A stretch of 53,777 bases of DNA from a bacterium (GCA_027624865.1 JAQBTT010000001.1:1-53777); one strand, 5' to 3'; shown: positions 20,207 through 35,619, numbered from the stretch's first letter. The notes: generated from the letters alone by a model not told the origin. Translations and numbers: made by a program.

Positions 20207-20295
20207 ATCAGTACCCTTACGAGGGTACGTTTAGAGAGTTTGATCCTAGCTCAGGATGAACGCTGGCGACGTGGATAAGGCATGCAAGTCGAACG

Positions 20296-20418
20296 TGTCA
20301 GTGTTACGCACTGACCGCAGACACACGCAGACTTGACGCGGAAATACGCAGAAAAATAGTTTCTGCGTGATTCTGCGTTTGTTCTGCGTAGTTCCGCGGC
20401 CAATGCGTAGCATTGGCA
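20296..20418 (+). repeat. 123-nt hairpin-cluster insertion module, copy 1, replacing 16S helix 6 / V1
   Basis: About 85% identical by eye to 31201-31321 in the 23S. The 3' 57 nt match at 55/57. Confidence 0.85.
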
Positions 20419-21929
20419 AGTGGCAAACGAGTTAGTAACACGTGGATACGTACCCTAAAGACGGGCACAACCAGCCGAAAGGTTGGCTAATTCCCGATAG
20501 CCCCCTCTTTCGCTTTTTGTTTCACAAAAAGCTTCAGAGGGCAAGGCCGTAAGGCTTCGCCCTCCGTAGCTCTGTGTGGAACGCAGAGCGAAGGAGGGGT
20601 AAAGAAGCAATTCGCTTTAGGAGCGGTCCGCGGCCTATCAGCTTGTTGGTGAGGTAAAAGCTCACCAAGGCTATGACGGGTAGGGGAGGTGAGAGCCTGT
20701 TCCCCAACGCGGGTACTGAGATACGGACCTGACACCTACGGGTGGCCGCAGTCGAGGATATTGGACAATGGGCGCAAGCCTGATCCAGCGACGTCGCGTG
20801 TGGGATGACGGCCTTCGGGTTGTAAACCACTTTTATAGAGGAAGAAGGCGCATCTCACTGTCGTTCGATGCGAAAGATACTTGTTGATATTTGTTTCTCG
20901 CTTTGCTCGAAACGATACTCGTTGATATTCATTGCAATGAGTATCGCGAGCGTAGCGAGCAAGTATCAATAAATATCTATGAATATTAGCACCGAGCGAG
21001 AGTGAGGTGCGTCTGACGGTACTCTATGAATAAGGGGGTGCTAACTCTGTGCCAGCAGCAGCGGTAATACAGAGCCCCCAAGCGTTATCCGGATTTATTG
21101 GGCGTAAAGCGTCTGTAGCCGGTTTGGCAAGTCTCTTGTTAAATACCAAGGGCTCAACCTTTGGAATGCAAGGGAAACTTTTAGACTAGAGGATGTTAGG
21201 GGCTGATGGAACTCTTAGTGGAGGGGTGGAATCCGTTGATATTAAGAGGAACACCGAAAGCGAAGGCATTCAGCTGGAACAATCCTGACGGTGAGAGACG
21301 AAAGCGTGGGGAGCAAAAAGGATTAGATACCCTTGTAGTCCACGCTGTAAACGATGGATACTAGCTATGTGAAGTGTCGACCCTTCACGTGGCGAAGCTA
21401 ACGCGTTAAGTATCCCGCCTGGGAAGTACGATCGCAAGATTAAAACTCAAAGGAATAGACGGGGGTCCACACAAGCGGTGGATCATGTGGCTTAATTCGT
21501 CAACAAACGAGGAACCTTACCAGGGTTTGACACCTACTGGAAAGCCTCCTGAAAGGGAAGCCTTCTCACAAGGACCAGTAGGCAGGTGTTGCACGGCCGT
21601 CGTCAGCATGTACCTTGAGGCGCTCCGTTAAATCGGGTAACATGCGCAACCCCTATCGCTTGTTTTATATGTCAAGCGAAACTGCCTGAGACAATCAGGA
21701 GGAAGGTGGGGATGACGCCAGGTCCGCGTGGCCCTTTGATATCCTGGGCTGCACACATGATACAATGGAGCCGACAATGGGACGCAATACAGTAATGTGG
21801 AGCAAATCCCTAAACGGCCCCTCAGTTCGGATTGAGGTCTGCAATTCGACCTCATGAAGCCGGAATCGCTAGTAATCGCGTATCAGCTATGGCGCGATGA
21901 ATATGTTCCTGGACCTTGTACTCACCGCC

Positions 21930-22798
21930 AAATAAAATGTGCCCGGCGGTTTACTTCACTAGCAGGTTAAAGTCCTGTCTTTGCAAAAGCAAAGTAGCCA
22001 AAAAATTAGCAGTCCTGGCTCGTAAGAGTCCAGGGTGGAGGGCTTGAGGCAAATAGCAGCCTATGACATAATGAATTTGAACGACTCCTGCGGGCGGTCT
22101 GAAGGAAGTTCAAGAATAATTCGTGCATAAGGATGCTAGGAAATGTGAAATAAATTACCCGGGGAGATCCTAGAAATGAGAGTCTTTTCTGATAATTTCT
22201 AGGAAGTCAGCTAGTGCCATAGTATCTTGCTTGGCAAGAGAAGGGCCTAACCTAAAAAGCATATGCTTTCAAAAGATTACATTGTTGGATTAACCGATGG
22301 GGAGGGGAGTTTTACTGCGTACCTCAGGCCTCCTCGCAAAGAACATGGCTCAAAGAGCTATCGCGTGGAATGTCATTACTATTTGAAGCTTCGAGAAGAT
22401 GACTTAGCCTTGTTAAAAAAGCTAAAGCAATTCTTTAAAGTAGGACTGGTATCATTTCAGAGAGATAGACGATTGAATCATCACGATTGCTATCGGTATG
22501 AAACAACGAATCTAAAGGACATTTGTGAAGTTATCATTCCATTTTTTGATGCAAATCCCTTGCAAGGGAATAAGATGCGAGACTATCGCTTATTCAAGAA
22601 GATTGTAAAAGCAGTAGTAAAGAAAGAGCATCGAACCAATGAAGGATTTTTGAAGATTAAGAAATGGAAAGAAGAAATGCATACTTTTGGGGCTCGCTGA
22701 ATACGGGAAATCCGTATGTTCAGCCTCGATATGGAAAGTCGAGGGCTCCTATTTACTAGGAGCTGGGAACGAGACATTTGACTCAAATGAACTCACTC
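21930..22798 (+). mobile_element. Intervening sequence / intron in the 16S decoding centre (between E. coli C1403 and C1404 equivalents) carrying a LAGLIDADG ORF
   Basis: Exon ttgtactcaccgcc | 869 nt | cgtcaagtc restores the universal CACCGCCCGUCA. The intron class was not established. Confidence 0.75.
22263..22700 (+). CDS. LAGLIDADG homing endonuclease (single-motif, I-CreI-like size)
   Basis: 145 aa with YIVGLTDGEGSF, located inside the 16S intervening sequence. Confidence 0.85.
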   Translation: MLSKDYIVGLTDGEGSFTAYLRPPRKEHGSKSYRVECHYYLKLREDDLALLKKLKQFFKVGLVSFQRDRRLNHHDCYRYETTNLKDICEVIIPFFDANPLQGNKMRDYRLFKKIVKAVVKKEHRTNEGFLKIKKWKEEMHTFGAR

Positions 22799-23101
22799 CG
22801 TCAAGTCAAGCGAGCCGGGAATACCCGAAACTCCACCTCGCGTGGATCTAAGGTAGGCTCGGTGAGAGGGACTAAGTCGTAACAAGGCACCGGTAGGGGA
22901 ACCTGTCGGTGGATCACATCATTTTTGAAAGTGTCGTCCAGATAAGCCCCGCCCTTTCTACGTCGCTCTACTGTCAATCGACGAGTATGGCGATGTGGAA
23001 AGGTATTCTTCGGAAATCATATTTCTTGAGGAAAGAGCGGGGTGATCTGCGGTGTAACTAGAGCCGTTAATTCTAGTTCTAGACATTTATGTTTAGTTTG
23101 T

Positions 23102-23129
23102 GGAGTCGGAACAACTTTTAGCAATCAAC
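23102..23129 (+). promoter_or_regulatory. 3' strand of the 16S processing stem
   Basis: ggagtcggaacaacttttagcaatcaac is complementary to 20179-20206. Confidence 0.7.
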
Positions 23130-23309
23130 TTAGCATACGCAACTTGCAGGAGAGGGTATTCACCCCGCCCCAAATCTTTGGTTTACAAACGTTATGTTTT
23201 TGGATGTAAAAATAATGTATGCCGTGCATAGATTTGGGGCGGGGTTCACAAAACTCCTGTTTTTGTTATGATAGGGAACAGGTTTTCCTTAGTTCCGTTA
23301 AGGGACTAT

Positions 23310-23383
23310 GCGCGTGTAGCTCAGCTGGTTAGAGCATTTCACTGATAATGAAAAGGCCGGAGGTTCGAGTCCTCCCACGCGCA
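23310..23383 (+). tRNA. tRNA-Ile (anticodon GAU)
   Basis: gcgcgtg/cacgcgc acceptor, anticodon loop ctGATaa, T arm ggagg-ttcgagt-cctcc. No CCA is encoded. Confidence 0.9.
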
Positions 23384-23519
23384 CAAGAAAACTAGACCGA
23401 GTCTAGTTTTTGAGAGATATGGTACCTGCTTTGAGAAAACGACTTGCCTTCAGCGGTTTTCTAAAGCAGGCCTGGGATTTGCATTATTCGTCCGCCAGGA
23501 GGCGGACGGCGCAAATCCC

Positions 23520-23616
23520 CCAAAAGACAAGCAGTTGTCTTTTGGGCCCGTGGCTCAGCTGGGTTAAAGACAACTGCTTGTCTTTAACGGGGTTTGAAAC
23601 AACTGCTTGTTTCAAA
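23520..23616 (+). repeat. Three tandem hairpins built on an aagacaa-NNNN-ttgtctt core, plus a 19-nt duplicate of the tRNA-Ala 5' end (23544-23562)
   Basis: ccaaaagacaagcagttgtcttttgg, gttaaagacaactgcttgtctttaac, gtttgaaacaactgcttgtttcaaac. gggcccgtggctcagctgg is identical to 23761-23779. Confidence 0.8.
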
Positions 23617-23720
23617 CGGACATTTTAGCGAACCCTCCGTGGTGAGCGTTAAAAAATGCCCAGGGTATAATGTAGTAAGCTCCTGCGAAGCCGTAAAAAA
23701 CTGCACCGGCTATAATATAG
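23605..23720 (+). repeat. Dispersed repeat family, copy A (core gaaccctccgtggtgagcg plus two tandem tataat-containing units)
   Basis: Near-identical to the reverse complement of 53665-53777. The core is shared with 30625-30699. Confidence 0.85.
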
Positions 23721-23760
23721 TAAGGTCTTTGAGAGTTGAAAATTGTTTGTAGAGTTTAAA

Positions 23761-23833
23761 GGGCCCGTGGCTCAGCTGGTAGAGCGCCTCATTTGCAATG
23801 AGGAGGTCAGCGGTTCGAACCCGCTCGGGTCCA
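23761..23833 (+). tRNA. tRNA-Ala (anticodon UGC)
   Basis: G3:U70 in the acceptor gggcccg/cgggtcc, anticodon loop ttTGCaa, T arm agcgg-ttcgaac-ccgct. Confidence 0.9.
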
Positions 23834-23845
23834 CAAATTCAGAAG

Positions 23846-23867
23846 ATCGCCAAGCAGGTGATTTTTT
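23846..23867 (+). terminator. Terminator after tRNA-Ala
   Basis: atcgcc-aagca-ggtgat followed by a T6 run. Confidence 0.55.
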
Positions 23868-23881
23868 GATAAAGTTAAGAC

Positions 23882-25165
23882 ATGCAAAAAGAAACACAAT
23901 GGGATGTTGTGGTTATTGGCGGTGGGGCATCTGGAATGATTGCTGCTGGTCGCGCTGGCGAGCGTGGCCGTAGTGTTTTACTGCTTGAGAAAAATCCTAC
24001 CTTAGGTAAAAAACTCCTTATCACGGGTGGCGGGAGATGTAACGTTACAAACAACAAGCCTGCAGTGCCAGTGATGCTCAAGGAATATAAGGGGAGTGAT
24101 AAGTTTCTCTTTTCTGCGTTTGTGCAATTTGGAGTAAAAGAAACACTGCAGTTTTTTAGCGATAGGGGAATGAAGATAAAGGAAGAGGCAGAGGGAAGAA
24201 TGTTTCCTGTATCAAATAAGGCAAAGTCAGTATGGGATGTGCTTATGCAATATGTGAAGAAAGGAGGGGTGAAGGTACAGACAAAGGCGCACGTTACAGG
24301 AATTACCTATGATACATCTTTACAGCAGTATGTTATAGCTCTTGCTGATGCAACTGAAGTGCATGCAAAAGCGTGCATTATTGCAACTGGCGGGATATCG
24401 CATCCTGAAACTGGTTCAACTGGTGAAGGGTTTTTGTGGCTTAAAAAATGTGGGCATGTGATAATTGAAAATGATTTAGCGCTTGTACCAATTGTACTAA
24501 GGGATGTATGGGCAAAGAAGCTAGCTGGGGTAACGCTCAATAATATTAAGCTCACTACATTTAAAAATGGAGTGAAGCAAAAGGCGTGCAAAGGGAAATT
24601 ACTTTTTACGCATGTTGGCATTAGTGGTCCTACGGTTTTAAATATGAGCAAAGAAATAGGAGAGCTTCTTTCGGAGAAAGAAGGGGCAGAATATATCAAA
24701 AAGGAAAAGATAAGTGAAGTTACAATTATGCTGGATTTATTCCCAACTCTTGATAGCGGTGTGCTTGGAAAGAAACTTCAGGCGCTTTTGACTGAAAGCA
24801 GTAACAAAAAGATAAAGAATGTGTTGTCTCCATTTATTTCTTCTACTCTTGTTGGTGTAGTGCTTATGCTCAGCAATGTGAATGGTGAAACACCAAGTCA
24901 TAGCGTACGCGCAGGAGAGCGAAAGGCGCTTACCTCTTTACTAAAAGCCATGCCCTTATCTGTTGCAGGGCTCCTTGGGAAGGATAAGGCAATAGTATCT
25001 TCAGGGGGCGTGATGCTTTCGCAAGTCAATTTCAAAACAATGCAGTCCCGCGTTCTGCCCCAACTCTACTTAATAGGTGACGTATTAAATATTGATCGCC
25101 CTTCTGGAGGATATAGTTTGCAATTATGCTGGACCACAGGCTATATTGCAGGGAGTAACTGCTAG
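23882..25165 (+). CDS. HI0933/BaiN-like FAD-dependent flavoprotein
   Basis: WDVVVIGGGASGMIAAGRA dinucleotide fold and LLITGGGRCNVTN, which is diagnostic of the HI0933 family. Confidence 0.8.
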   Translation: MQKETQWDVVVIGGGASGMIAAGRAGERGRSVLLLEKNPTLGKKLLITGGGRCNVTNNKPAVPVMLKEYKGSDKFLFSAFVQFGVKETLQFFSDRGMKIKEEAEGRMFPVSNKAKSVWDVLMQYVKKGGVKVQTKAHVTGITYDTSLQQYVIALADATEVHAKACIIATGGISHPETGSTGEGFLWLKKCGHVIIENDLALVPIVLRDVWAKKLAGVTLNNIKLTTFKNGVKQKACKGKLLFTHVGISGPTVLNMSKEIGELLSEKEGAEYIKKEKISEVTIMLDLFPTLDSGVLGKKLQALLTESSNKKIKNVLSPFISSTLVGVVLMLSNVNGETPSHSVRAGERKALTSLLKAMPLSVAGLLGKDKAIVSSGGVMLSQVNFKTMQSRVLPQLYLIGDVLNIDRPSGGYSLQLCWTTGYIAGSNC

Positions 25166-25209
25166 TATGGAGTGAGGGTGTATTATGAAAGATAAAAATA
25201 TTGTATAAT

Positions 25210-25989
25210 ATGAACATGCCAGAAAAGAAAAAAAGAATTCTTCTTATAGAAGATGAGAGGACCATTGCCAATCTTATTGAATTAAGACTCAAGCGCTCTG
25301 GATATGAGGTAGAAGTTATATACGATGGAATAAAGGGATTGAAGACCATTTTAGAGTCCCCCCCAGATCTTGTCCTTTTAGATATGTTGCTTTCTGGTTT
25401 GAGTGGTTTTGATATTTTAAAGACGTTAAAAGAGAAGAATCTTTTGCCCAACTTGCCTGTTATCATTATTTCAAACTCTGCCCAACCCGTGCAGTTAAAG
25501 CGTGCAGTAGATTTGGGGGCAAGGGGGTACTTAATAAAGGTAAACTTTAGTCCAGAGGAAGTGGTAGAAAAGGTAGAAGCGGTATTTAAAGAGGGCATAA
25601 AACAAGATTCTTTAAGTGAGAGCAATGTTCTTTTAGTGGAAGATGAGAAGTTTCTTGCCGATGCTATTGAAAGAACATTTACTCAAAAACAGTATAAAGT
25701 TTTGCAAGCTACAAATGCCAGAGAGGCAAGAAACATACTTGGTGAGGAAAAGGTCGATGTAATACTCCTGGATATTATTCTTCCTGATATTGACGGATTT
25801 CAGTTCTTGGAGGAATTGAAGAAAGACGACAAAGTTAAAGGTATCCCTGTGATTATTATCTCAAACCTTGGGCAAAAAGAAGAGATTGAGAAGGGGAAAA
25901 AGATGGGAGCGATTGATTACATTATAAAATCAGATACAATTCCAAGTGAAATTCTAGAAAAGGTTGAGAGTATACTTAAAAGTAATTAA
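25210..25989 (+). CDS. Response regulator with two receiver (REC) domains and no output domain
   Basis: Two REC units (LLIEDE..LLDMLL..YLIK and LLVEDE..LLDIILP..YIIK). The start is ATG 25210 or 25216, and TATAAT lies at 25204-25209. Confidence 0.8.
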   Translation: MNMPEKKKRILLIEDERTIANLIELRLKRSGYEVEVIYDGIKGLKTILESPPDLVLLDMLLSGLSGFDILKTLKEKNLLPNLPVIIISNSAQPVQLKRAVDLGARGYLIKVNFSPEEVVEKVEAVFKEGIKQDSLSESNVLLVEDEKFLADAIERTFTQKQYKVLQATNAREARNILGEEKVDVILLDIILPDIDGFQFLEELKKDDKVKGIPVIIISNLGQKEEIEKGKKMGAIDYIIKSDTIPSEILEKVESILKSN

Positions 25990-26004
25990 TATATATAAAA
26001 TACT

Positions 26005-27204
26005 ATGGCAATACAAGCTGGAGTTGGACAAGGTTCACAAAAGGATCCCTATGAGGCAGGATTTGAGGCGTGTCAAGCGGCACTTGATAAATTAGAAGGA
26101 GAGAAAGCAGACTTGGTTATTGTATTTTCCTCGGTTGCGCTTGACCAAAAAGAGGTTATTCGTGGTGTGCGCAATGTAAGTGGTGACGCTCTGCTTGTTG
26201 GGTGTAGTGATGCTGGGAGCATTACAAGTTCGGGCCCCGCTAAGAATGCAGTTGGGGTGATGGCAATTTCTTCAGATAAGCTGCACTTCTATACTGGCCT
26301 TGGCAAAGGAGTGAGCGATGGAGCACGGGAAGCTGGGCAAGCTCTTGCAAAAGAAATTCAAGAAAAAGCAAAAGAACCCTTGAAAACATTTTTAATGTTC
26401 CCAGATGTACTTACGGGAAATGGAGCAGATATTGTGCGAGGGGTATTAGATGTTTTGGGGGAGCATTTCCCATTGCTGGGAGGAGCTGCTGGTGACGATT
26501 TTCTTTTTAAAAAAACCTATCAGTACAAAGATGGCGAGGTTGCATCAGGCGCTGTTGCTGGGGTTGGTATCTCTGGAGATTTTGTAATGGGAGCTGGAGT
26601 ACGTCATGGATGGATGCCCATTGGTAGCTCAATGACTGTAACAAAGTCAAAAGGTTCTGTGGTGTATGAGCTGGACGGGAAACCTGCTGCTAGAATCTAT
26701 GAAGACTATTTTGGAGAACGAGCAGAAGATTTAAAAAGTGAACCTTTAGCGCGCTTGGCAATAACATATCCTTTAGGGATTAAGGTGAGTGATCTTGATG
26801 AATATTTAATTCGAGACCCTATCACGGTGGACGAAAATGGGGCTATCACGTGTGCAGCTGAGATCCCAGAAGGGTCAGAGATTAGGCTGATGATTGGGAG
26901 TAAGGATAAGGCGATAGAGGCCGCTCAAGATGCAGCAGAAAAGCTCATGCGAGATTTTAAAGAGAAGAATGCAACACCAAAATTTGTTTTGATGTTTAAC
27001 TGTATTGCACGAGAAAAATTGTTTGCACAAAAGGCAAATGATGAGATTCAAGCGATAATGAACATTATTGGCAAAGACGTTCCATTATTGGGATTCTACA
27101 CGTACGGGGAAATAGCCCCCATAAAAGGAGAGGTGCACGACATGGAGAAGGTTGTTTCAAAATTTTACAATGAAACCGTTGTGATGCTTGCGATAGGAGA
27201 ATGA
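26005..27204 (+). CDS. FIST-domain (FIST_N + FIST_C) sensory protein
   Basis: 399 aa, cytoplasmic. The layout (DLVIVFSS..GCSDAG..GDF.. and the C-terminal LGFYTYGEIAP) is typical of FIST proteins. Confidence 0.7.
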   Translation: MAIQAGVGQGSQKDPYEAGFEACQAALDKLEGEKADLVIVFSSVALDQKEVIRGVRNVSGDALLVGCSDAGSITSSGPAKNAVGVMAISSDKLHFYTGLGKGVSDGAREAGQALAKEIQEKAKEPLKTFLMFPDVLTGNGADIVRGVLDVLGEHFPLLGGAAGDDFLFKKTYQYKDGEVASGAVAGVGISGDFVMGAGVRHGWMPIGSSMTVTKSKGSVVYELDGKPAARIYEDYFGERAEDLKSEPLARLAITYPLGIKVSDLDEYLIRDPITVDENGAITCAAEIPEGSEIRLMIGSKDKAIEAAQDAAEKLMRDFKEKNATPKFVLMFNCIAREKLFAQKANDEIQAIMNIIGKDVPLLGFYTYGEIAPIKGEVHDMEKVVSKFYNETVVMLAIGE

Positions 27205-28163
27205 ATTCTTTCGTTATTCTTGGAACTATTGCGCTTGCTGGTATTGTTTTTGCTTTTATCTTTACGCAGGGCGCGAGAAAGCAACTTCTAAACTTGCAAA
27301 AAAAGAACGTACGTTTTGAAAAACTCCTTTTGCAAAAGGAGCGTGAGCTTGCTCAAGCCAATGGAATACTGAAGGAACGTAGCAAAGAGTCCAATGAAGT
27401 AGCAAGGGTACTTGTAAGAAGAGATTTGGAGTTAACAGAGACAAACGAGCGTTTACGTGAGCTTGATTCAGTGAAATCAGAATTTGTGTCTGTTGCAGCT
27501 CACCAGCTAAGAACTCCCTTAACAGGTATTAAGTGGACCCTCAATGCTCTGCTTACTGGTGAGGTTGGTACGCTGGATAAGGACCAAAAAAAACTTGTTA
27601 CAGATGGTCTTGCTGCAACGTATAGATTAATAGAACTTATCAATGACTTATTGGATACTGCGCGTATTGAGGAAGGGAGATTTGGGTTTAACTTTAAGAT
27701 GCTTTCCTTAGCTCCAATACTTAAGCAGTCGATTGTGAACTATGCAGTGATTGCAAAGAAGAAAGGCATACAGCTTATACTCAAGTTGCCAGAAGCAAAG
27801 CTCCCTTTGCTAAAACTTGACGCAGAAAAGATTGGAATTGTACTAGATAACCTTATTGATAACGCTATAAAGTATACAATTCCTGGGGGCAAGATAACAG
27901 TGCGAGCTACACTTCAAAAAGAGCATGTTGTGCTAGAGGTGGAAGATACAGGAATTGGGGTTCCAAAAGAGCAAGTGCATCGCGTCTTTACTAAATTTTT
28001 TAGGGCAGTAAATGCTCAGCTTGCAGAGACCTCAGGAACCGGACTTGGACTATACGTATCCCATAACATTGTAGAGCACCACAGAGGAACTCTTTCTTTT
28101 ACAAGTAGTGAGGGGAAAGGGAGTACATTTGTTGTTTCTCTTCCTTTAGTTAATCAAAGATAA
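27201..28163 (+). CDS. Sensor histidine kinase (TM, coiled coil, HisKA, HATPase_c)
   Basis: H-box SEFVSVAAHQLRTPLT, N-box DNLIDNAIKYT and G-box GTGLGL. The start overlaps the FIST stop (ATGA). Confidence 0.85.
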   Translation: MNSFVILGTIALAGIVFAFIFTQGARKQLLNLQKKNVRFEKLLLQKERELAQANGILKERSKESNEVARVLVRRDLELTETNERLRELDSVKSEFVSVAAHQLRTPLTGIKWTLNALLTGEVGTLDKDQKKLVTDGLAATYRLIELINDLLDTARIEEGRFGFNFKMLSLAPILKQSIVNYAVIAKKKGIQLILKLPEAKLPLLKLDAEKIGIVLDNLIDNAIKYTIPGGKITVRATLQKEHVVLEVEDTGIGVPKEQVHRVFTKFFRAVNAQLAETSGTGLGLYVSHNIVEHHRGTLSFTSSEGKGSTFVVSLPLVNQR

Positions 28164-28181
28164 TACATTTACATAGTAGTT

Positions 28182-28448
28182 ATGCTAAAAACACTTACCT
28201 TCCATCCATCTCGCATCGGGTGCCCATCAATTCCTGGCACCATGAAAGGGATTGTAATTTCAATTCCCGGAGTAAAAGACGTAGAAGTAAGGTATGAAGA
28301 ACGTTCAATAGATGTTACTTTTGACGAAACGAAAACATCACCTGAGGAAATCACAAAGAAGATAGGAGAAGAGATGGGCTTGGCAATGGAAGTTACTAAG
28401 CATGGCTCAAAAAAAGAAGGGAACGTAGCACATACCTGTCCTATGTAA
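28182..28448 (+). CDS. Small HMA-like (ferredoxin-fold) protein with a degenerate metal site
   Basis: IPGVKDVEVRYEERSIDVTFD...EEITKKIGEEMG matches the HMA fold pattern, but the usual CxxC is replaced by GCPSIPGT. The C-terminus is HTCPM. Confidence 0.4.
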   Translation: MLKTLTFHPSRIGCPSIPGTMKGIVISIPGVKDVEVRYEERSIDVTFDETKTSPEEITKKIGEEMGLAMEVTKHGSKKEGNVAHTCPM

Positions 28449-28557
28449 TAGGGAGGGTACTTTTCCACAGGCGCTCTATTGCTCTGATTCTATCTTTGGT
28501 ATAATAATTGAACGCACAAAAGGTCGTTTTTAGCATAGTAAAGGTAAATATATTACA

Positions 28558-28764
28558 ATGATGCAAAGAAGCACAATAGGTTTGGTAGTCGGTATTCTTT
28601 TAGTTGTTGGTGGTCTAAACTGGGGATTGGTTGGACTCTTCAACATGGATGTTGTCGCTACCGTTTTTGGAGGAACTGCAGCCTTGGGTTCCAAGGTCGT
28701 ATATGTTCTTGTAGGGATTGCAGCCATATACAAGCTCGCCAAGATGGTGGGGATAATGAAGTAA
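28558..28764 (+). CDS. DUF378-family small membrane protein
   Basis: 68 aa with GGLNWGLVGLF and two TM helices. Confidence 0.75.
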   Translation: MMQRSTIGLVVGILLVVGGLNWGLVGLFNMDVVATVFGGTAALGSKVVYVLVGIAAIYKLAKMVGIMK

Positions 28765-28828
28765 TTGATACTTCTTTCTGCCCAGCCCTCTTTAAAGAGG
28801 GCTGGGTCAAAGAGATATTTATTCTATA

Positions 28829-29251
28829 ATGCATTCATTCTTTAATTTTTTAAATCGTATTTTCCCAGCACAAGTTGTATTTGCGCACTGCGATATTCCT
28901 TGTGGTATTTATACTCCAGAGCCAGCACAAACTGCAGCTTTGACTGTAATTCGCATGATAGAGAAGCTTCAGGAAGCAGAGGCAGGGGATGCTCACAACA
29001 TAGCAAGGTTCACTCAAGCAAAAGAAGAGCATGCACAAAAATGCAAACAAGAACTCCTTATTCTTTGGACTGATTACTTTAAAGAAGAGCATCTTTTGGT
29101 GTTCCCAAATCTCCACGATATTTTTTGGAAAGCAACAAAGCTGTGTTCCAAGAATAAGCAGGAAGTAAGTATGGAGGCTGCTCAGGCCTTGAAGCAGGCA
29201 GTAGCTGAGATAGCAGAGATGTTCCACAAAGTAGAGGCAGCAAAGAAATGA
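28829..29251 (+). CDS. sodN: Nickel superoxide dismutase precursor
   Basis: A leader peptide followed by HCDIPCGIY (the Ni-hook His-Cys-x-x-Pro-Cys-Gly-x-Tyr) and LWTDYFK. Confidence 0.85.
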   Translation: MHSFFNFLNRIFPAQVVFAHCDIPCGIYTPEPAQTAALTVIRMIEKLQEAEAGDAHNIARFTQAKEEHAQKCKQELLILWTDYFKEEHLLVFPNLHDIFWKATKLCSKNKQEVSMEAAQALKQAVAEIAEMFHKVEAAKK

Positions 29252-29309
29252 TGAGACTGCTTGAGTTGCTTGAAACCGGGTTTCAAGCAGTCAGAGGCAG
29301 CGTTATACT

Positions 29310-29627
29310 ATGATTTCCTATTTTAAAGTGAAGGGCCAGAGCATGGAGCCCTGGGTAAAAGAAGGGGACTTTGTTTTGGTAGATAGGTTGTCCTATCTAT
29401 TTTTAAGACCAAAGGTAGGACATGTAGCATTAATAAGGCATCCAGAGAAGCCAAACTTGCTAATTATAAAGCGCATTGCGCGAAAAGAGGATAATAGGTA
29501 TTGGGTAGAGGGGGACTCTTCTTTTAATAGTACAGATAGTCGGCATTTTGGGTGGCTCAAAAGAGAGCTTTTAGTGGGAAAAGTTATCCACAGGACAGGC
29601 TCCTTTGCTCTTGGTATACTATCGTAA
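29310..29627 (+). CDS. sodX: S26-family peptidase, NiSOD maturation protease
   Basis: VKGQSMEP (Ser nucleophile), IIKRIA (Lys) and GDSSFNSTDSRHFG, located directly downstream of sodN. Confidence 0.75.
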   Translation: MISYFKVKGQSMEPWVKEGDFVLVDRLSYLFLRPKVGHVALIRHPEKPNLLIIKRIARKEDNRYWVEGDSSFNSTDSRHFGWLKRELLVGKVIHRTGSFALGILS

Positions 29628-29683
29628 TATAAGAAAAGGTCGGAAAAGGTAGTTTCCATAATTAAAGAATACACAAAAAATAT

Positions 29684-30361
29684 ATGGTTCTCGATTTATA
29701 CGTGGTTACCATTCAAGCTCTGCAAGGTCTTTGGGAAGGGTTCATTGGATTTTTGCCAGAATTGATTGGAGCGCTCATCATCTTTGTTATTGGATGGTTT
29801 ATCTCTGTTGGAGTAGGCCGTTTGGTAGCTGACATTTTAAAGAGAATTAAATTCAATCAAGTTTTTGAGCGAGGAAACTGGAAGAGTGCCCTAGAAAAAG
29901 CGGACATTAAGATGGATCCTTCAGGATTCATAGGCGCTATCTTCAAATGGGTGTTTGTTATCGTGTTCCTTAGAGTGACCGTGGAGGTGCTGGGCTTAAC
30001 TCAGCTTACTACGTTCATTGAGAGTATTCTCGCATATTTGCCTAATGTACTGGTTGCCTCGTTAATTTTCGTAGTAGCTGTGATTGTTGCAGATATCGTA
30101 GAGAAAGTTTTGAGAGCTGCAGTGGAGTCTGCTCAGGTAGGGCAGGCACACATGGTTGGTGTAATTGTCAGGTGGTCCATTTGGATCTTTGCTGCAATTG
30201 CAATCTTAACTCAGCTTGGCGTTACCCCAATTCTTTGGCAGACTTTGTTTACCGGTTTGGTAGCATTGATTGTTGTGGCTGGTGGTTTGGCATTTGGCTT
30301 GGGAGGAAAGGAAGTAGCAGGCCAATGGCTACAAGACATGAGTAGGAAACTAAAAGGATAG
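29684..30361 (+). CDS. Integral membrane protein with conserved-TM-helix repeats (MscS-N-terminal-like)
   Basis: 225 aa with 4-5 TM helices and a repeated G.LP.L.GAL.I...GW motif. Confidence 0.5.
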   Translation: MVLDLYVVTIQALQGLWEGFIGFLPELIGALIIFVIGWFISVGVGRLVADILKRIKFNQVFERGNWKSALEKADIKMDPSGFIGAIFKWVFVIVFLRVTVEVLGLTQLTTFIESILAYLPNVLVASLIFVVAVIVADIVEKVLRAAVESAQVGQAHMVGVIVRWSIWIFAAIAILTQLGVTPILWQTLFTGLVALIVVAGGLAFGLGGKEVAGQWLQDMSRKLKG

Positions 30362-30381
30362 TTTTTCTACTTTCTCTTCTG

Positions 30382-30412
30382 AAACTACCCCGCTTTTGCG
30401 GGGTAGTTTTTT
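30382..30412 (+). terminator. Strong rho-independent terminator
   Basis: aaactaccccgc-tttt-gcggggtagttt followed by ttt. Confidence 0.85.
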
Positions 30413-30476
30413 ACTCCTTAAAATAAGGTGGAAAACCTCTTGTTTTGAGAGGAATATATGGGATTTTTTGGATGAG

Positions 30477-30505
30477 TTGACATTGATTGAGCCATAGCGT
30501 ATACT
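30477..30505 (+). promoter_or_regulatory. Promoter of the 23S-5S transcription unit
   Basis: TTGACA (30477-30482), 17-nt spacer, TATACT (30500-30505). Confidence 0.65.
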
Positions 30506-30624
30506 TAAAATACGACATGAGAAATAGCCAAAAACTTTTGCAATCACAAAGCGGCTGATAAAACCTGATGGTTTAATGTGTCAGTAGGATGCCGCCACGT
30601 AAGCGGTTTTTTGTTCCTCATGTT

Positions 30625-30699
30625 GGGTCCAAGACAACTACTTGTCTTGGATGGGTGATTTAGTGAACCCTCCGTGGTGAGCGTAAAAAATCACCCAGG
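30625..30699 (+). repeat. Dispersed repeat family, copy B (aagacaa hairpin plus the gaaccctccgtggtgagcg core)
   Basis: ccaagacaactacttgtcttgg followed by tgatttagtgaaccctccgtggtgagcgtaaaaaatcaccc. This is the same architecture as 23591-23660. Confidence 0.8.
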
Positions 30700-30712
30700 T
30701 TCTTTGTCAATT

Positions 30713-30738
30713 TAATAATGGGTATAATCTGCTAGCAA
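30713..30738 (+). promoter_or_regulatory. 5' strand of the 23S processing stem
   Basis: The reverse complement of taataatgggtataatctgctagcaa matches 35620-35644 at 25/26 positions. Confidence 0.8.
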
Positions 30739-30971
30739 CAGGAATCAATTGTAATTATAGGCAGGTAGTGGATGCCTTGGGATGTAAAGGCGATGAAGGA
30801 CGTAGCTTAGCTGCGATAAGCCTCGGGGAGCAGTGTAGCATGCTTTGATCCGGGGATTTCCGAATGGGGAAACCTGGTTTATGGAAACATAGATCGTCTG
30901 TCAGCAATGACAGAAGCGAACCCGCTGAAGTGAAACATCTCAGTAAGCGGAGGAAAAGAGAACGTAAGTAT

Positions 30972-31156
30972 CCTTGTGCTTCGCACAAGGAATTCCTAAT
31001 TAACCTAATTCCTAATTAACCTAATCAATAACCAATGTCTTAATACTAATGACCAAAAACTTATAGAGTACTATATTGGTTTTTAGAAATTAGGATCTGG
31101 GATTTCTTTAGAAATTAGAAATTAGATATTAGAAATTTCTCGTGCGAAGCACGAGG
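30972..31156 (+). repeat. 185-nt AT-rich insertion in 23S domain I bounded by inverted GC hairpins (IVS- or MITE-like)
   Basis: ccttgtgcttcgcacaagg (30972-30990) against the reverse complement of ctcgtgcgaagcacgagg (31139-31156) gives 17/19. TAT flanks both ends. The interior is made of stuttered words (aattcctaattaacc x2, ttagaaatta x3). Confidence 0.75.
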
Positions 31157-31200
31157 TATATTCCCTTAGTAGCGGCGAGCGAAATGGGAGGAGCCTAAAC

Positions 31201-31321
31201 TGTCAGTGCTTTGCATTGACCGCAGAAGGACGCGGACTTGACGCGGAACTGCGCGGAAATATTTTCTGCGTGATTCTGCGTTTGGTCTGCGTAGTTCCGC
31301 GGCCAATGCGGAGCATTGGCA
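31201..31321 (+). repeat. 121-nt hairpin-cluster insertion module, copy 2, in 23S domain I
   Basis: Homologous to 20296-20418 in the 16S: tgtcagtg...cattgaccgcag...ttctgcgtgattctgcgtttg.tctgcgtagttccgcggccaatgcg.agcattggca. Confidence 0.85.
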
Positions 31322-33072
31322 GGGTTGTAAGACTATAGCGTCGGGAGTTGTTTTGAAACGTTGCGCGATTTTGGAGATCTCAATAGTGGGGTCCCCGAAA
31401 TTGCGAAGCGATTTTGAAGGAATTTCTGAGGGAGAATATTTAGATAAAGTGGTTAGAAAAACGCCTCTGGAACGGGCGGCCAAAGAGGGTAATAGCCCCG
31501 TATTCGAAAACTGCCTTTATGCTCCTTGCTATTTTTCTTGAGTACCTCGGGACACGAATATCCCGTGGGAAACATCCGGGACTATCCGGAAAGGCTAAAT
31601 ACTTTACATCACCGATAGTGAACGAGTACCGTGAGGGAAAGGTGAAAAGCAGCCCGGTGAGGGCGATGAAATAGAACCTGAAACTATCTTGCCTACAACG
31701 AATCGGAGGGGAGTTTACTCCCTGACGGTGTGCTTTTTGCAGAACGAGCCAACGAGTGTTCCTAACAGCTTTGTCTAAGCGCCTTTGGCGTGCAGGCACA
31801 GCGAAAGCGAGTGTGAATAGCGCGTTTGGCGTCCGCAAGGACGCTATGAGTTGTTGGGAACGACCCGAAGCCAAGCGAGCTTGCCATGAGCAGGGTGAAG
31901 GATGACGAAAGTCGTCTGGAGGCCCGAACCCGTAGATCGTTCAACGTCTTGGGATGACTTGTGGTAAGAAGTGAAAAGCTAATCGAGCTTGGTAATAGCT
32001 GGTTCTCTCCGAAATAGCTTTAGGGCTAGCGTCGCAAAGCAAGTCTTGGAGGTAGAGCTCTGAAAAGAGCGCTCTTGGAGCAATCCAGGCGCTTTTATCA
32101 AACTTCGAATGCCAAGACTCTAGATGCGGCAGTCAGAACGTGGGGGCTAAGCTCCGCGCTCAAAAGGGAAACAGCCCAGATCTTCATCTAAGGTCCCTAA
32201 ATCAAGCTAAGTGCAAAATAAGGAAGTGAGGCTCCAAAGATAGCTAGGAGGTTCGCTTAGAAGCAGCTATCCTTTAAAAATAGCGTAATAGCTTACTAGC
32301 TAAGGAGTTTTGCGCCGCAAATTTATCGGGGCTAAGCTTGGTACCGAAGATAAGGCCCAGCTCTCTTTCAAGAGGGCTGGGGGTAGGAGAGCGTCCTCTT
32401 TGCAATGAAGGTGAATCGTGAGGTTTGCTGGAGCGGAGAGGAGTGAGAATGTTGGCATGAGTAACCACAATGCAAGTGAAATCCTTGCACACCGAAAACC
32501 TAAGGTTTCCTTGGCAATGACAATCACCCAAGGGTTAGGCGGCCCTAAGTGGTGCACCAAATGGTGTATTGCGATGGACAGAAGGTTAATATTCCTTCCC
32601 CTTGTCATATGCTTTTTCAGATGACGGAGTGTAGTAACTCTTGTGAATTATTGGATTTTTGTCCTTGGCGTGAGGGGTAACCCAAGCGCAGAGGCGACTC
32701 GCTGTTATGGCGGGGAGAAGAGTGAGCACGCTTCCCGGAAAAGTTCTGAAAGTTTGAGTATGATGAGTCCGTACCGTAAACCGACACAGGTGGGTTGGTA
32801 TCAATGTACTAAGGTGAACGGGTGAAAGCTCCTGAAGGAACTCGGCAAATTAGTGGTCGTAACTTCGGGATAAGACCTCCCTGTAGCAATACAGGGCGCA
32901 GCAAACGTATTCCTGGCGACTGTTTACCAAAAACACAGGTCCCTGCATAACTCGAAAGAGGAAGTATAGGGGCTGACGCCTGACCAGTGCTGGAGTGTTA
33001 AGCCTGCAGGTGGCTTTGAGCAATCAAAGCTGCTTAGTGGGTGAAGCCCCAGTGAACGTCCGCGGTAACTAT

Positions 33073-33810
33073 AAACTCACGGGTTGTAGTTATAAAATCT
33101 GGCCATATGCGGGAACATCTCGACAAAAATCTTAGACGTACTCGTAAGGAATTCGTCTCCTTGCAGTAACAATCGATCTAAGAGAGAAAATCCGCAGGAA
33201 AGACCATTTGTGAGTCACAAAAAAACATGAGAAGTCAATCATGGGAAAAGCAAATCCCCAGCCACATTGGGTGGTATCTTGCAGGATTTGCAGATGGTGA
33301 AGGAAGCTTCAACATCTCCCTTAAGAGAGATATAGAGTATCGACTCGGTTGGCATATTGAACCAAGTTTCAATGTATCCCAACGAGAAAGAACAATTCTT
33401 GCTTTGTTCAAACAACATCTTGGAGTAGGAACACTTCGTCAACGAAAAGATGGAGTAGTATACTACGAAGTGCGCAATTATCGTGCACTGCAAGATAAAG
33501 TTATTCCTTTCTTTGAGAAATTTACTTTTCTTTCTTCAACAAAAAAGAGAAATTTCTCGCTCTTCCGTAAAATTATTGTTCTTATGAATGAAGGGCAACA
33601 TACAAATGCGGAAGGTTTGAAGAAAATCCTTTTGATTAGAGAACAAATTAATAAAGGTCATGGAAGAACAAGGAAGTATTCATTAGACGATTATTTAGAC
33701 TCACAAGCGGAATCCTCAGAGACTATACGCCAGACCCTGAGAGAGCCGAAAGGCGAATCGAAGGGATGATATAGTCCGATCTCATAGGTGACTATGAGCT
33801 AACATGTATG
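33073..33810 (+). mobile_element. Group I intron at the site equivalent to E. coli 23S U1917 (helix 69 loop), carrying a LAGLIDADG ORF
   Basis: The 5' exon ends in U (gtaactat) and the intron ends in G. The internal guide GUAGUU pairs with exon AACUAU with a U.G at the splice site. The core elements aatctggccatatgcggg and gatatagtcc are present. Joining the exons restores GUAACUAU|AACCGUG, so helix 69 (cgcgg/ccgtg) can form. Confidence 0.75.
33227..33769 (+). CDS. LAGLIDADG homing endonuclease (single-motif)
   Basis: 180 aa with WYLAGFADGEGSF. The ORF 3' end runs into the intron core (its stop overlaps gatatagtcc). Confidence 0.85.
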   Translation: MRSQSWEKQIPSHIGWYLAGFADGEGSFNISLKRDIEYRLGWHIEPSFNVSQRERTILALFKQHLGVGTLRQRKDGVVYYEVRNYRALQDKVIPFFEKFTFLSSTKKRNFSLFRKIIVLMNEGQHTNAEGLKKILLIREQINKGHGRTRKYSLDDYLDSQAESSETIRQTLREPKGESKG

Positions 33811-33824
33811 AACCGTGTTAAAGT

Positions 33825-34097
33825 AGGAAATCTGCTTTAGTAAAATCTGGCTATATGCTGGAAAATCTGAGTATCCGACACTACTTGAAAGAGTGAAAAT
33901 GTGTTCGGTGCAGACAATCAGCAGGAAACCAAAATCATAAAGTGTGATGAGTAGGATCCTCAGAGACTATACGCCAGACCCCGACATTACGTCGGGGAAG
34001 ATATAGTCCGAACTTCATGGCGACATGAAGAGTGAAGTAGAAATACTTCACCGCCATGCCTCTTTTTATGAGGCTTGGTCTGAAAGTAACATGATTG
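33825..34097 (+). mobile_element. ORF-less group I intron at the site equivalent to E. coli 23S U1931
   Basis: The 5' exon ends in U (ttaaagt) and the intron ends in G (atgattg). The guide GCUUUA pairs with exon UAAAGU with a U.G wobble. The core aatctggctatatgctgg, cagacaatcagcagg and gatatagtcc is homologous to the neighbouring intron. Joining the exons gives AAAGU|AGCGUAAUCCCUUG. Confidence 0.7.
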
Positions 34098-34420
34098 AGC
34101 GTAATCCCTTGCCTGGTAAGTTCAGGCCTGCATGAAAGGCGTAACGACTGGGAAACTGTCTCCAGGAGCTGCCCGGTGAAAATGCAATACCGGTAAAGAT
34201 GCCGGTTACCTGCGGCTAGACGGAAAGACCCCGGGAGCTTTACTATAGCTTCTTATTGTCTTGTCATTTTGCCTGCGTAGAATAGCAGGGAGGCTTTGAT
34301 GCCCGTTTTTCGGAATGGGTGGAGCCAACAGTGAAATACCTGTCTGGTAGGAAGATAAGACTAATTCCGCGTATGCGGATGACAGTGGGAGGTGGGTAGT
34401 TTTAGTGGGGCGCTAGCCTT

Positions 34421-34729
34421 AACACAATGGGGCCATCTAAGAGTAATTTTAGATGCCAAACTCGACTAATATGCTGGAATATCTGGAGTACTTAAGGAGT
34501 AATCCAACAAGTGTGGCCGTAAGATACGGCTACCAGACAATCAGCAGGGAAGGTATAATAGAGGTACCACCCTCAACGACTACACGTCGAGCCCGAACTA
34601 TTGAAAGAATGAATGTTCGGTGGTGATATAGTCTGAACTCTATGGCGACATAGAGACTCGGTAATGTTCACACATTGCGCCAGTGAAACAATCCGAGACT
34701 TAAGTGCTTACTTAAGGTTAACAGAATTG
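34421..34729 (+). mobile_element. ORF-less group I intron just 3' of the P-loop (about E. coli 2257-2263). Boundaries are uncertain by up to ~8 nt.
   Basis: It interrupts ggggcg..|..cctaaagagtagcggagg. It shares the core ctcgactaatatgctgg, cagacaatcagcaggg and gatatagtct with the other introns. An alternative boundary pair is 34415/34724. Confidence 0.6.
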
Positions 34730-35060
34730 CCTAAAGAGTAGCGGAGGCGTTTAAAGGTCAGCTAAGTCCGGATGGAAATCGGACCGGTCGTGTAAAGGCG
34801 CAAGCTGGCTTTACTGCGAGACGGATATGTCGAGCAGTTGCGAAAGCAGAACTTAGTGAACCGATACGCCGTAATAGAAGGCGTAAAGATCATCAACCAA
34901 AAGTTACCCCGGGGATAACAGGCTGGTAGTGCCCACGAGTCCATATCTACGGCACTGTTCGGCACCTCGATGTCGGCTCACCTTATCCTGGGGGTGGAGA
35001 AGCTCCCAAGGGTTTGGCTGTTCGCCAATTAAAAAGGTACGCGAGCTGGGTTCAGACCGT

Positions 35061-35328
35061 CAATAATGAACCATGACATTGAGTAACACACGGCGGCTTT
35101 CATAAGTAATTATGATCGCAAACCGACTCATATCGGTGGATTCCTATAAACTTTTTCGCAACCTGGAAGAGTAGGAGAATACCGAGGCAACCTGTATGTA
35201 TATTATATATGGGAGCTGTAGAGACTTGATCTATGATCAGACGGGAGAGAATATTTTTCCGTAACACGTCGGCATCCTTAGTAAAGGATGGTGGTATAGT
35301 CCAAACATTTGGTAACAAGTGAGTATTG
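35061..35328 (+). mobile_element. ORF-less group I intron at the site equivalent to E. coli 23S U2593 (peptidyl-transferase centre)
   Basis: Exon gggttcagaccgt | 268 nt ending in G | cgtgagacaggt restores GAACGU|CGUGAGACAG. The core aaaccgactcatatcggtgg and ggtatagtcc is present. Confidence 0.7.
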
Positions 35329-35619
35329 CGTGAGACAGGTTGGTCCCTATCTACCGCAGGCGTCAAGTCTTGAGGAGATTCGTCTCTAGTACGAGAGGAC
35401 CGAGATGAACTAACCTCTGGTGTACCAGTTGTCCTGCCAAGGGCATCGCTGGGTAGCTATGTTGGGAAGGGATAAGCGCTGAAAGCATATAAGCGCGAAG
35501 CCTACTCCAAGATGAGGACTTTAAGATCCCTCGAAGATCACGAGGTTGATAGGCTCTAGGTGAAAGCCCGGTGACGGGTTCAGCCGAGGAGTACTAATGA
35601 TCTACATACGATTATTTCT

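Follow-up and report, generated by a model that had tools for sequence, protein, structure and literature searches.

The window analysed here is a stretch of 53,777 nucleotides (53.8 kb) that makes up one entire contig of a 559-kb genome, a metagenome-type assembly in 38 contigs that is 98.9% complete. Relatives of the window are labelled Parcubacteria or Patescibacteria in public records, and the host is a small-genome, uncultured bacterium of the Patescibacteria/CPR type. It has a single 23S rRNA gene, which Rfam positions at 30745-35617. This span of 4873 nt compares with the 2925 positions of the Rfam model, so the gene is heavily interrupted. Among its interruptions are two group I introns set around a micro-exon, the first of them with an endonuclease ORF, and two additional group I introns further downstream (Table 1).

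Other features of the rRNA region were also recorded. In the window region 20228-30745, the 16S match spans 1734 nt against the 1533 positions of its model, so the 16S gene is interrupted too, and the gap between the 16S and 23S genes measures about 8.8 kb and holds two tRNA genes. Domain I of the 23S gene contains an AT-rich insertion of about 185-197 nt (30972-31156) which is not in the Rfam model. A match to the plant microRNA family MIR7996 at 30974-31152, inside this insertion, was discarded as a chance hit, since it reaches 46.6 bits against a gathering score of 119.

Insertion sites and exon junctions

The two neighbouring introns, of 738 and 273 nt, are inserted after U1917 and U1931, respectively. 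Excising 33073-33810 and 33825-34097 yields ...CGCGGTAACTAT AACCGTGTTAAAGT AGCGTAATCCCTTG. The joined sequence CGGTAACTAT/AACCGTGTTAAAGT/AGCGTAATCC is uninterrupted in genomes of the same genus; indeed, CGGTAACTAT AACCGTGTTAAAGT AGCGTAATCCCTTG runs unbroken at loci L003 and L004 of G002 and G004, both from this genus, and likewise in 13 other relatives. When the window's 23S gene was aligned by BLAST with L003 and L004, the alignment stopped at 33074 and restarted at 34098. The joined sequence in intron-less relatives and the BLAST breaks therefore identify both stretches as insertions, and 33811-33824 as an exon of 14 nt. A first-pass annotation of this DNA had placed the introns at these positions, which prove exact to the base, and the joined form in the relatives bears out its statement that excision restores conserved 23S sequence. 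The pairing that it drew for helix 69, cgcgg (33061-33065) with ccgtg (33813-33817), is correct. It had also described the 14-nt exon as the 3' strand of helix 69, which must be ligated on both sides; in agreement, the same 14-mer lies between the two sites in intron-less relatives.

All junctions were placed from these relatives; a Rfam search of 32990-34200 alone reported none of the 23S exons. Regarding site numbers, the annotated 2903-nt copy of the E. coli 23S gene gives 1916 and 1930, which become 1917 and 1931 in the 2904-nt reference numbering through an inferred one-base offset. The assembly is supported by a contig of 2157 nt, obtained from a DNA run, that covers 32916-34500 with both introns, zero differences and even depth. 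This run is probably the source sample, hence the contig is not fully independent.

The third intron interrupts the gene at position 2261 of the 2903-nt E. coli copy, that is L2262, just 3' of the P-loop. Its junction 34419/34730 is fixed by the intron-less gene of G002, which reads ...GCUAGCCU/CCUAAAGAG..., and an earlier ambiguity about its boundaries is settled by this alignment for the 34420/34730 pair. At the fourth site, L2593, the upstream exon ends in GACCGU and the gene resumes with CGUGAGACAG. The L2593 intron is present in G002 and absent from G004, and is therefore polymorphic within the genus.

Table 1. Coordinates in the window of the exon ends, introns and intron elements of the 23S rRNA gene
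Feature	Position	Strand	Description	Evidence
23S exon 1 end	33061..33072	+	helix 69 5' strand and loop, last base U1917	same exon end in L003, L004
P1 exon strand of intron 1, AACUAU	33067-33072	+		sequence
Intron 1	33073..33810	+	group I, L1917, 738 nt	Rfam halves, 29-member alignment, covariation, ORF-less counterpart
Intron 1 P10 partner, CACGGGUU	33078-33085	+		
Intron 1 guide, GUAGUU	33086-33091	+		
Intron 1 P3 through P6	up to about 33198	+		
Endonuclease ORF	33227..33769	+	180 aa, one LAGLIDADG motif (LAGFADGEG), inside P6 loop of intron 1	ORF list, Pfam
Intron 1 P7	33721-33727 with 33770-33776	+		
Intron 1 P3'	33729-33734	+		
Intron 1 P9	33781-33798	+		
Intron 1 terminal G	33810	+		
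Micro-exon, AACCGUGUUAAAGU	33811..33824	+	14 nt, positions 1918-1931, helix 69 3' strand	identical 14-mer in intron-less relatives
Intron 2	33825..34097	+	group I, L1931, 273 nt, no ORF	RF00028, thermodynamic fold, relatives
Intron 2 guide, GCUUUA	33834-33839	+		
Intron 2 terminal G	34097	+		
Next 23S exon start, AGCGUAAUCCCUUGC	34098..34112	+	from A1932	joins micro-exon directly in intron-less relatives
Third intron	34420-34729		group I, 310 nt, no ORF	RF00028, 71.9 bits over 34410-34655
Fourth intron	35061-35328		group I, L2593, 268 nt, no ORF	RF00028, only 28.8 bits

Group I folds, exon pairings and the endonuclease gene

Both introns have the core of group I ribozymes. In an alignment of 30 introns of the window and its relatives, restricted to the two core segments (5' and 3'), each position of P3, P4, P5, P7 and P9 forms a standard pair in 27-30 sequences, and most positions do so in all 30. 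Compensatory changes are numerous in these core helices, such as U-A to C-G in P7 and G-C to A-U in P3. Covariation thus supports the P3-P9 core with its P3/P7 pseudoknot in both introns. In the two of them P2 is absent, P3 follows P1 by 5-6 nt and P5 is extended, with P5a and P5b, a GAAA loop and an A-rich bulge visible in the fold. Introns at L1917 and L1931 were described as lacking P2, with an extended P5, and as IC1-like (Haugen et al. 2007, PMC1995217); by match to this published description, both window introns are IC1-like and P2-less.

Regarding the Rfam group I model RF00028, proposed in the first-pass annotation as a check, the outcome differs between the two introns. Intron 2 scores 77.6 bits, over the gathering score of 50, and its minimum-energy fold (z = -5.6) gives P1, P3 to P9, P9.1 and P9.2. 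Intron 1 stays under the gathering score in both of its halves (26.6 bits for the 3' half and 14.8 for the other), since its P6 holds 515 nt of ORF; the L1917 counterpart in G239, which has no ORF and 84% core identity to it, reaches 60.3 bits. Introns homologous to intron 1 occupy the same site in G028, G033, G039, G222 and G239.

The group I rules that had been read from the window, namely a U at the exon end, a U·G pair of this U with an internal guide and a final G, apply to both introns. P1 of intron 1 pairs (U)AACUAU with GUAGUU(A) and that of intron 2 pairs UAAAGU with GCUUUA, in each case with U·G at the splice site and with hairpin folds of z = -3.2 and z = -4.1, respectively; the last bases are G33810 and G34097. 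The guide of L1931 introns follows the exon across genomes, as in the exon/guide sets UAUGGU/GCCAUA, UAAGGU/GCCUUA, UAAAGU/GCUUUA and UACGGU/GCUGUA.

The micro-exon shows how two ribozymes can be served by 14 nt: seven bases go to P10 of the upstream intron and six to P1 of the downstream one, with no overlap. Its bases 1-7 (AACCGUG) pair with CACGGGUU, located just 5' of the guide of intron 1, to form a P10 with one bulged G. This P10 covaries at L1917, since in G039 the exon reads AAUCGUC and the intron GAUGGUU. Bases 9-14 are the exon strand of P1 of intron 2. P10 of intron 2 itself is weak, with 2 bp, and is ACGC/GCGU in most L1931 relatives. According to the mechanism that we propose, both introns would fold and remove themselves by the standard pair of transesterifications. 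P1 of intron 1 would be built on the exon sequence AACUAU and its P10 on bases 1-7 of the micro-exon, and P1 of intron 2 on the last six bases of the micro-exon. As the two sets of bases do not overlap, either intron could leave first, and both splices together would restore helix 69.

The ORF of intron 1 matches Pfam PF00961 (LAGLIDADG_1) with E = 1.7e-18 and 67.8 bits, against a curated cut-off of 23.1. The match is a single stretch, residues 18-117, and the motif LAGFADGEG keeps the acidic residue. Among solved proteins the best relative is I-SmaMI (E = 2.5e-36), and the 180-aa protein matches each half of it. These similarities point to a single-motif LAGLIDADG homing endonuclease, whose cleavage activity is a prediction from the sequence. 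The ORF ends in J8/7 with the stop codon UGA, and its last 56 nt double as P6', P7, P3' and P8. A LAGLIDADG ORF with its 3' end overlapping the ribozyme core had been noticed from the start, as had the lack of an ORF in intron 2, and we reach the same result on both points.

Occurrence, relationships and origin of the pair

Among 401 genomes of the window's order, the combination of L1917 and L1931 introns occurs in four others (G222, G179, G390 and G087). G222 has the architecture of the window, with an ORF-bearing intron of 753 nt, the same 14-mer and an ORF-less intron of 300 nt. Also in this sample, G376 (L043) and G296 (L061) have introns at L1911 and L1931 around a 20-nt exon. A scan of public genomes, limited to one genome per species and based on the L1917 P1 signature, gave at least 119 loci (L071-L189). 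Among the scan matches listed, 69 loci have both exon anchors; an L1917 intron alone is found in 33 of them, and in 28 a second insert lies precisely at the junction of the 14-mer with A1932. Besides Paenibacillus roseus MAHUQ-46, the hosts of the twins listed span many CPR groups.

Some loci depart from this pattern in details. In L146, L103, L160 and L154 of the scan, which have the L1917 P1 signature, the insert ends directly before CCTAAGGT, and not before AACGGT...; these genes may have another intron around 1923/1924, with an exon that would be about 6 nt long. Two L1931 introns contain ORFs of non-LAGLIDADG type: that of G390 (L032; 568 nt) encodes a Cys-rich protein of 69 aa (CGDC...CPKC), possibly a zinc ribbon, and that of G179 (L030; 532 nt) has an ORF of 105 aa. 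The L1917 intron of G179 seems to end in A and not in G under any slippage alternative (...AAAAAGAGAGA/AATCGTCC); its close relative in G390 ends in ...GATG. Either a sequence error or a non-canonical 3' end could account for the final A.

The window introns belong to one broad family without being close paralogues. Over 209 well-filled columns of the core, intron 1 shares 84% identity with the L1917 intron of G239 and 82% with that of G028. For intron 2 the values are 85% to the L1931 intron in G015 and 72-82% to 17 other L1931 introns. In a maximum likelihood tree, calculated with the guide columns removed, intron 1 forms a clade (support 100/98) with its L1917 counterparts in G239 and G028, and intron 2 lies among the L1931 introns, nearest to that of G015. 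Two endonuclease families are resolved (support 100/99), and the enzyme of the window belongs to that of L1917, being 70% identical to the G028 L1917 endonuclease and 33-37% to the L1931 enzymes. The L1931 intron of G015, nearest to intron 2, keeps an endonuclease gene of the L1931 family whose product is 33% identical to the window enzyme, and therefore intron 2 is best read as a derivative in which the gene was lost.

Our preferred reading, to which we give a probability of about 0.85, is that one widespread rDNA family has contributed two separate mobile group I introns, each from its own site-specific lineage, which interrupt the 23S gene after U1917 and U1931. Intron 1 would still carry its single-motif LAGLIDADG homing endonuclease gene, intron 2 would derive from an endonuclease-bearing L1931 intron by gene loss, and self-splicing is expected. 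The two may have been acquired separately by homing. As for their distribution, each is found alone in relatives, G239 and G028 lack intron 2 and G015 lacks intron 1.

This same distribution bears on another account, in which the pair arrived together as one mobile unit: an ORF-less L1931 intron would have been co-converted during homing of the L1917 intron, making a second endonuclease gene dispensable. Co-conversion of flanking markers in homing is established (PMC3984707), and the same-genus genomes G002 and G004 lack both introns, as a joint arrival would allow. With length taken as a proxy for endonuclease presence, relatedness ignored and two sampling frames mixed, the counts of twins also favour it. 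The 28 pairs among the scan matches listed comprise 18 with a long L1917 and a short L1931 intron, 5 with the reverse, 2 with both long and 3 with both short, so that exactly one intron is long in 23 of 28 (negative association, Fisher p = 0.009). Of the L1931 introns in the window's order that occur without an L1917 intron, 13 of 17 are long; of the 5 that lie beside one, none has a LAGLIDADG gene (p = 0.005). However, the nearest relatives of each window intron lack its partner, and therefore the pair is not a long-lived linked unit. We consider a joint arrival rather unlikely for the window.

As a general proposal for twin L1917 and L1931 introns, a single homing unit deserves mention, tentative and somewhat doubtful as it is. 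The sites are only 14 bp apart, so one endonuclease may carry both introns by co-conversion, and selection may keep one gene per pair. If true, this would explain the missing ORF in intron 2 of the window as well as the presence of exactly one long intron in 23 of the 28 twins listed. The family-wide comparison thus raises a population-genetic idea, that closely spaced introns may share one homing endonuclease.

Local spread had been suggested in the first-pass annotation, which took the two introns for paralogues on account of long shared core blocks. Under this explanation, intron 2 would be a recent copy of intron 1, or the reverse, which arose in this lineage by ectopic spread across the 14 nt, and the ORF would have been lost afterwards. 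The identical blocks are real, one of them of 26 nt, but they correspond to the conserved P3, P4, J6/7-P7-P3' and P7' elements, present in all 30 aligned introns, in the third intron of the window and in the Rfam consensus, and are not specific to the pair. Close paralogy fails in further respects, and membership of the same broad family is what stands of the claim. The core identity of the two introns is 66%; by this measure intron 1 ranks 26th of 29 in similarity to intron 2, no closer than the L1917 introns of other genomes. Constraining the window introns to be sisters makes the tree 56 log-likelihood units worse (AU test, p = 0.0014), and the nearest relative of intron 2 bears an enzyme of the L1931 family. 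Paralogous spread is rejected for this pair, as a highly improbable origin.

Gene conversion between the window introns was also considered, from their identical P3 (GGC/GCC) as opposed to AGC/GCU in G028 and G033. It was ruled out: identity to intron 2 is 66.1% for intron 1, 67.4% for the L1917 intron of G239 and 65.7% for that of G028, and compensatory changes of the ordinary kind explain how P3 differs.

In relatives, endonucleases of one lineage have moved to other sites close by in helix 69, a point which speaks for local spread. The L1917 introns of G179 and G390 encode an enzyme of the L1931 family (45-47% identity), and the L1911 intron of G376 encodes one of the L1917 family (42% identity). 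Judging from these sequences, endonuclease lineages appear to hop between the adjacent sites 1911, 1917 and 1931. The spread to an adjacent site suggested earlier therefore occurs in the family, but not between these two copies, as the tree and the AU test indicate.

Intervening sequences that fragment the rRNA exist in bacterial 23S genes, and the inserts could be of this kind, cut out without ligation, or could be retained as expansion segments. Many non-intron insertions in CPR rRNA genes are reported (PMC11270868). Against fragmentation or retention, the group I core is complete in both inserts, the splice site of each lies at a U·G pair of P1 and the last base is G. In addition, a free 14-nt fragment would be unable to supply the 3' strand of helix 69; this explanation is slightly less credible again than local paralogy. 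Splicing of both introns in this organism is a prediction from the sequence. Contigs that join 33074 to 34098 with CCGTGTTAAAGT between them occur in three runs, one of DNA and two from RNA libraries, although for one of these libraries RNA is only a guess. They are 96-98% identical to the window. With 2-4% of positions different and the same joined form in the DNA run, they probably come from intron-less relatives, and as proof of splicing the contigs of the RNA runs were ruled out. A word share of about 0.17 in many marine runs corresponds likewise to conserved exon sequence of relatives and is no guide to habitat.

Least probable of all is an assembly chimera of strains with one intron each, for although the assembly is of metagenome type in 38 contigs and intron-less and single-intron relatives exist in nature, a separate DNA-run assembly crosses both introns in one contig with no differences and even depth, and the same architecture recurs in many other genomes.

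Comparison with known systems

The arrangement, considered unusual when it was first noticed, is not: it has been published for Synechococcus sp. C9 (PMC1995217), and it recurs in the four other genomes of the order and in 28 of the 69 loci among the scan matches listed. Whether singly or combined, introns at L1917 and L1931 are on record for cyanobacteria (PMC1995217), have been surveyed in CPR bacteria (PMC11270868) and are frequent in public genomes. The twin is thus already published and common, and the window is an ordinary new example of it. As an example, the pair adds little.

A 2007 study (J Bacteriol 189:6572, listed among the references of PMC11270868) reportedly described a bacterial 23S gene whose helix 69-71 region has a pair of group I introns around a very short exon, one intron being at L1917. 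Going by its title, self-splicing is said to have been shown experimentally. The second site was reportedly 1951, and not 1931, with an exon of 34 nt instead of 14 nt.

The CPR survey (Tsurumaki et al. 2024, J Bacteriol 206:e00074-24, PMC11270868) lists insertion hot spots in the 23S gene, including 1917, 1931, 1952 and 2593, that bear LAGLIDADG_1. The hot spots 23IS6-8 (1917, 1931 and 1952) resemble the window in bacterial group, sites and LAGLIDADG_1 proteins, and the survey also agrees with the window in that group I introns are biased to the 3' part of the 23S gene and that many genes are multiply inserted (PMC11270868). The passages of the survey that were consulted are silent on the pair, on how the micro-exon pairs and on how neighbouring introns are related.

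The same sites are used in Thermotoga species and Simkania negevensis (L1931) and in Thermotoga subterranea (L1917) (Table 1, PMC1995217). Their endonucleases are of the same single-motif LAGLIDADG type, with 143-168 aa, but these genes have one intron each, whereas the gene of the window has the twin (PMC1995217).

[quoted passage not shown] 2007, BMC Evol Biol 7:159, PMC1995217). It shares with the window the two sites, hence the 14-nt exon, and the L2593 intron, together with single-motif LAGLIDADG endonucleases and an L1917 ORF that starts in P6 and runs through P7, P3 and P8 (PMC1995217). There are also differences: the Synechococcus L1917 ORF stops in P9 and that of the window in J8/7, and all three C9 introns carry an endonuclease gene, in contrast to the L1931 and L2593 introns of the window (PMC1995217). 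Moreover, the host of the window is of CPR type and its 23S gene has one intron more, at L2262. As regards descent, the Synechococcus introns and their endonucleases cluster by site (PMC1995217).
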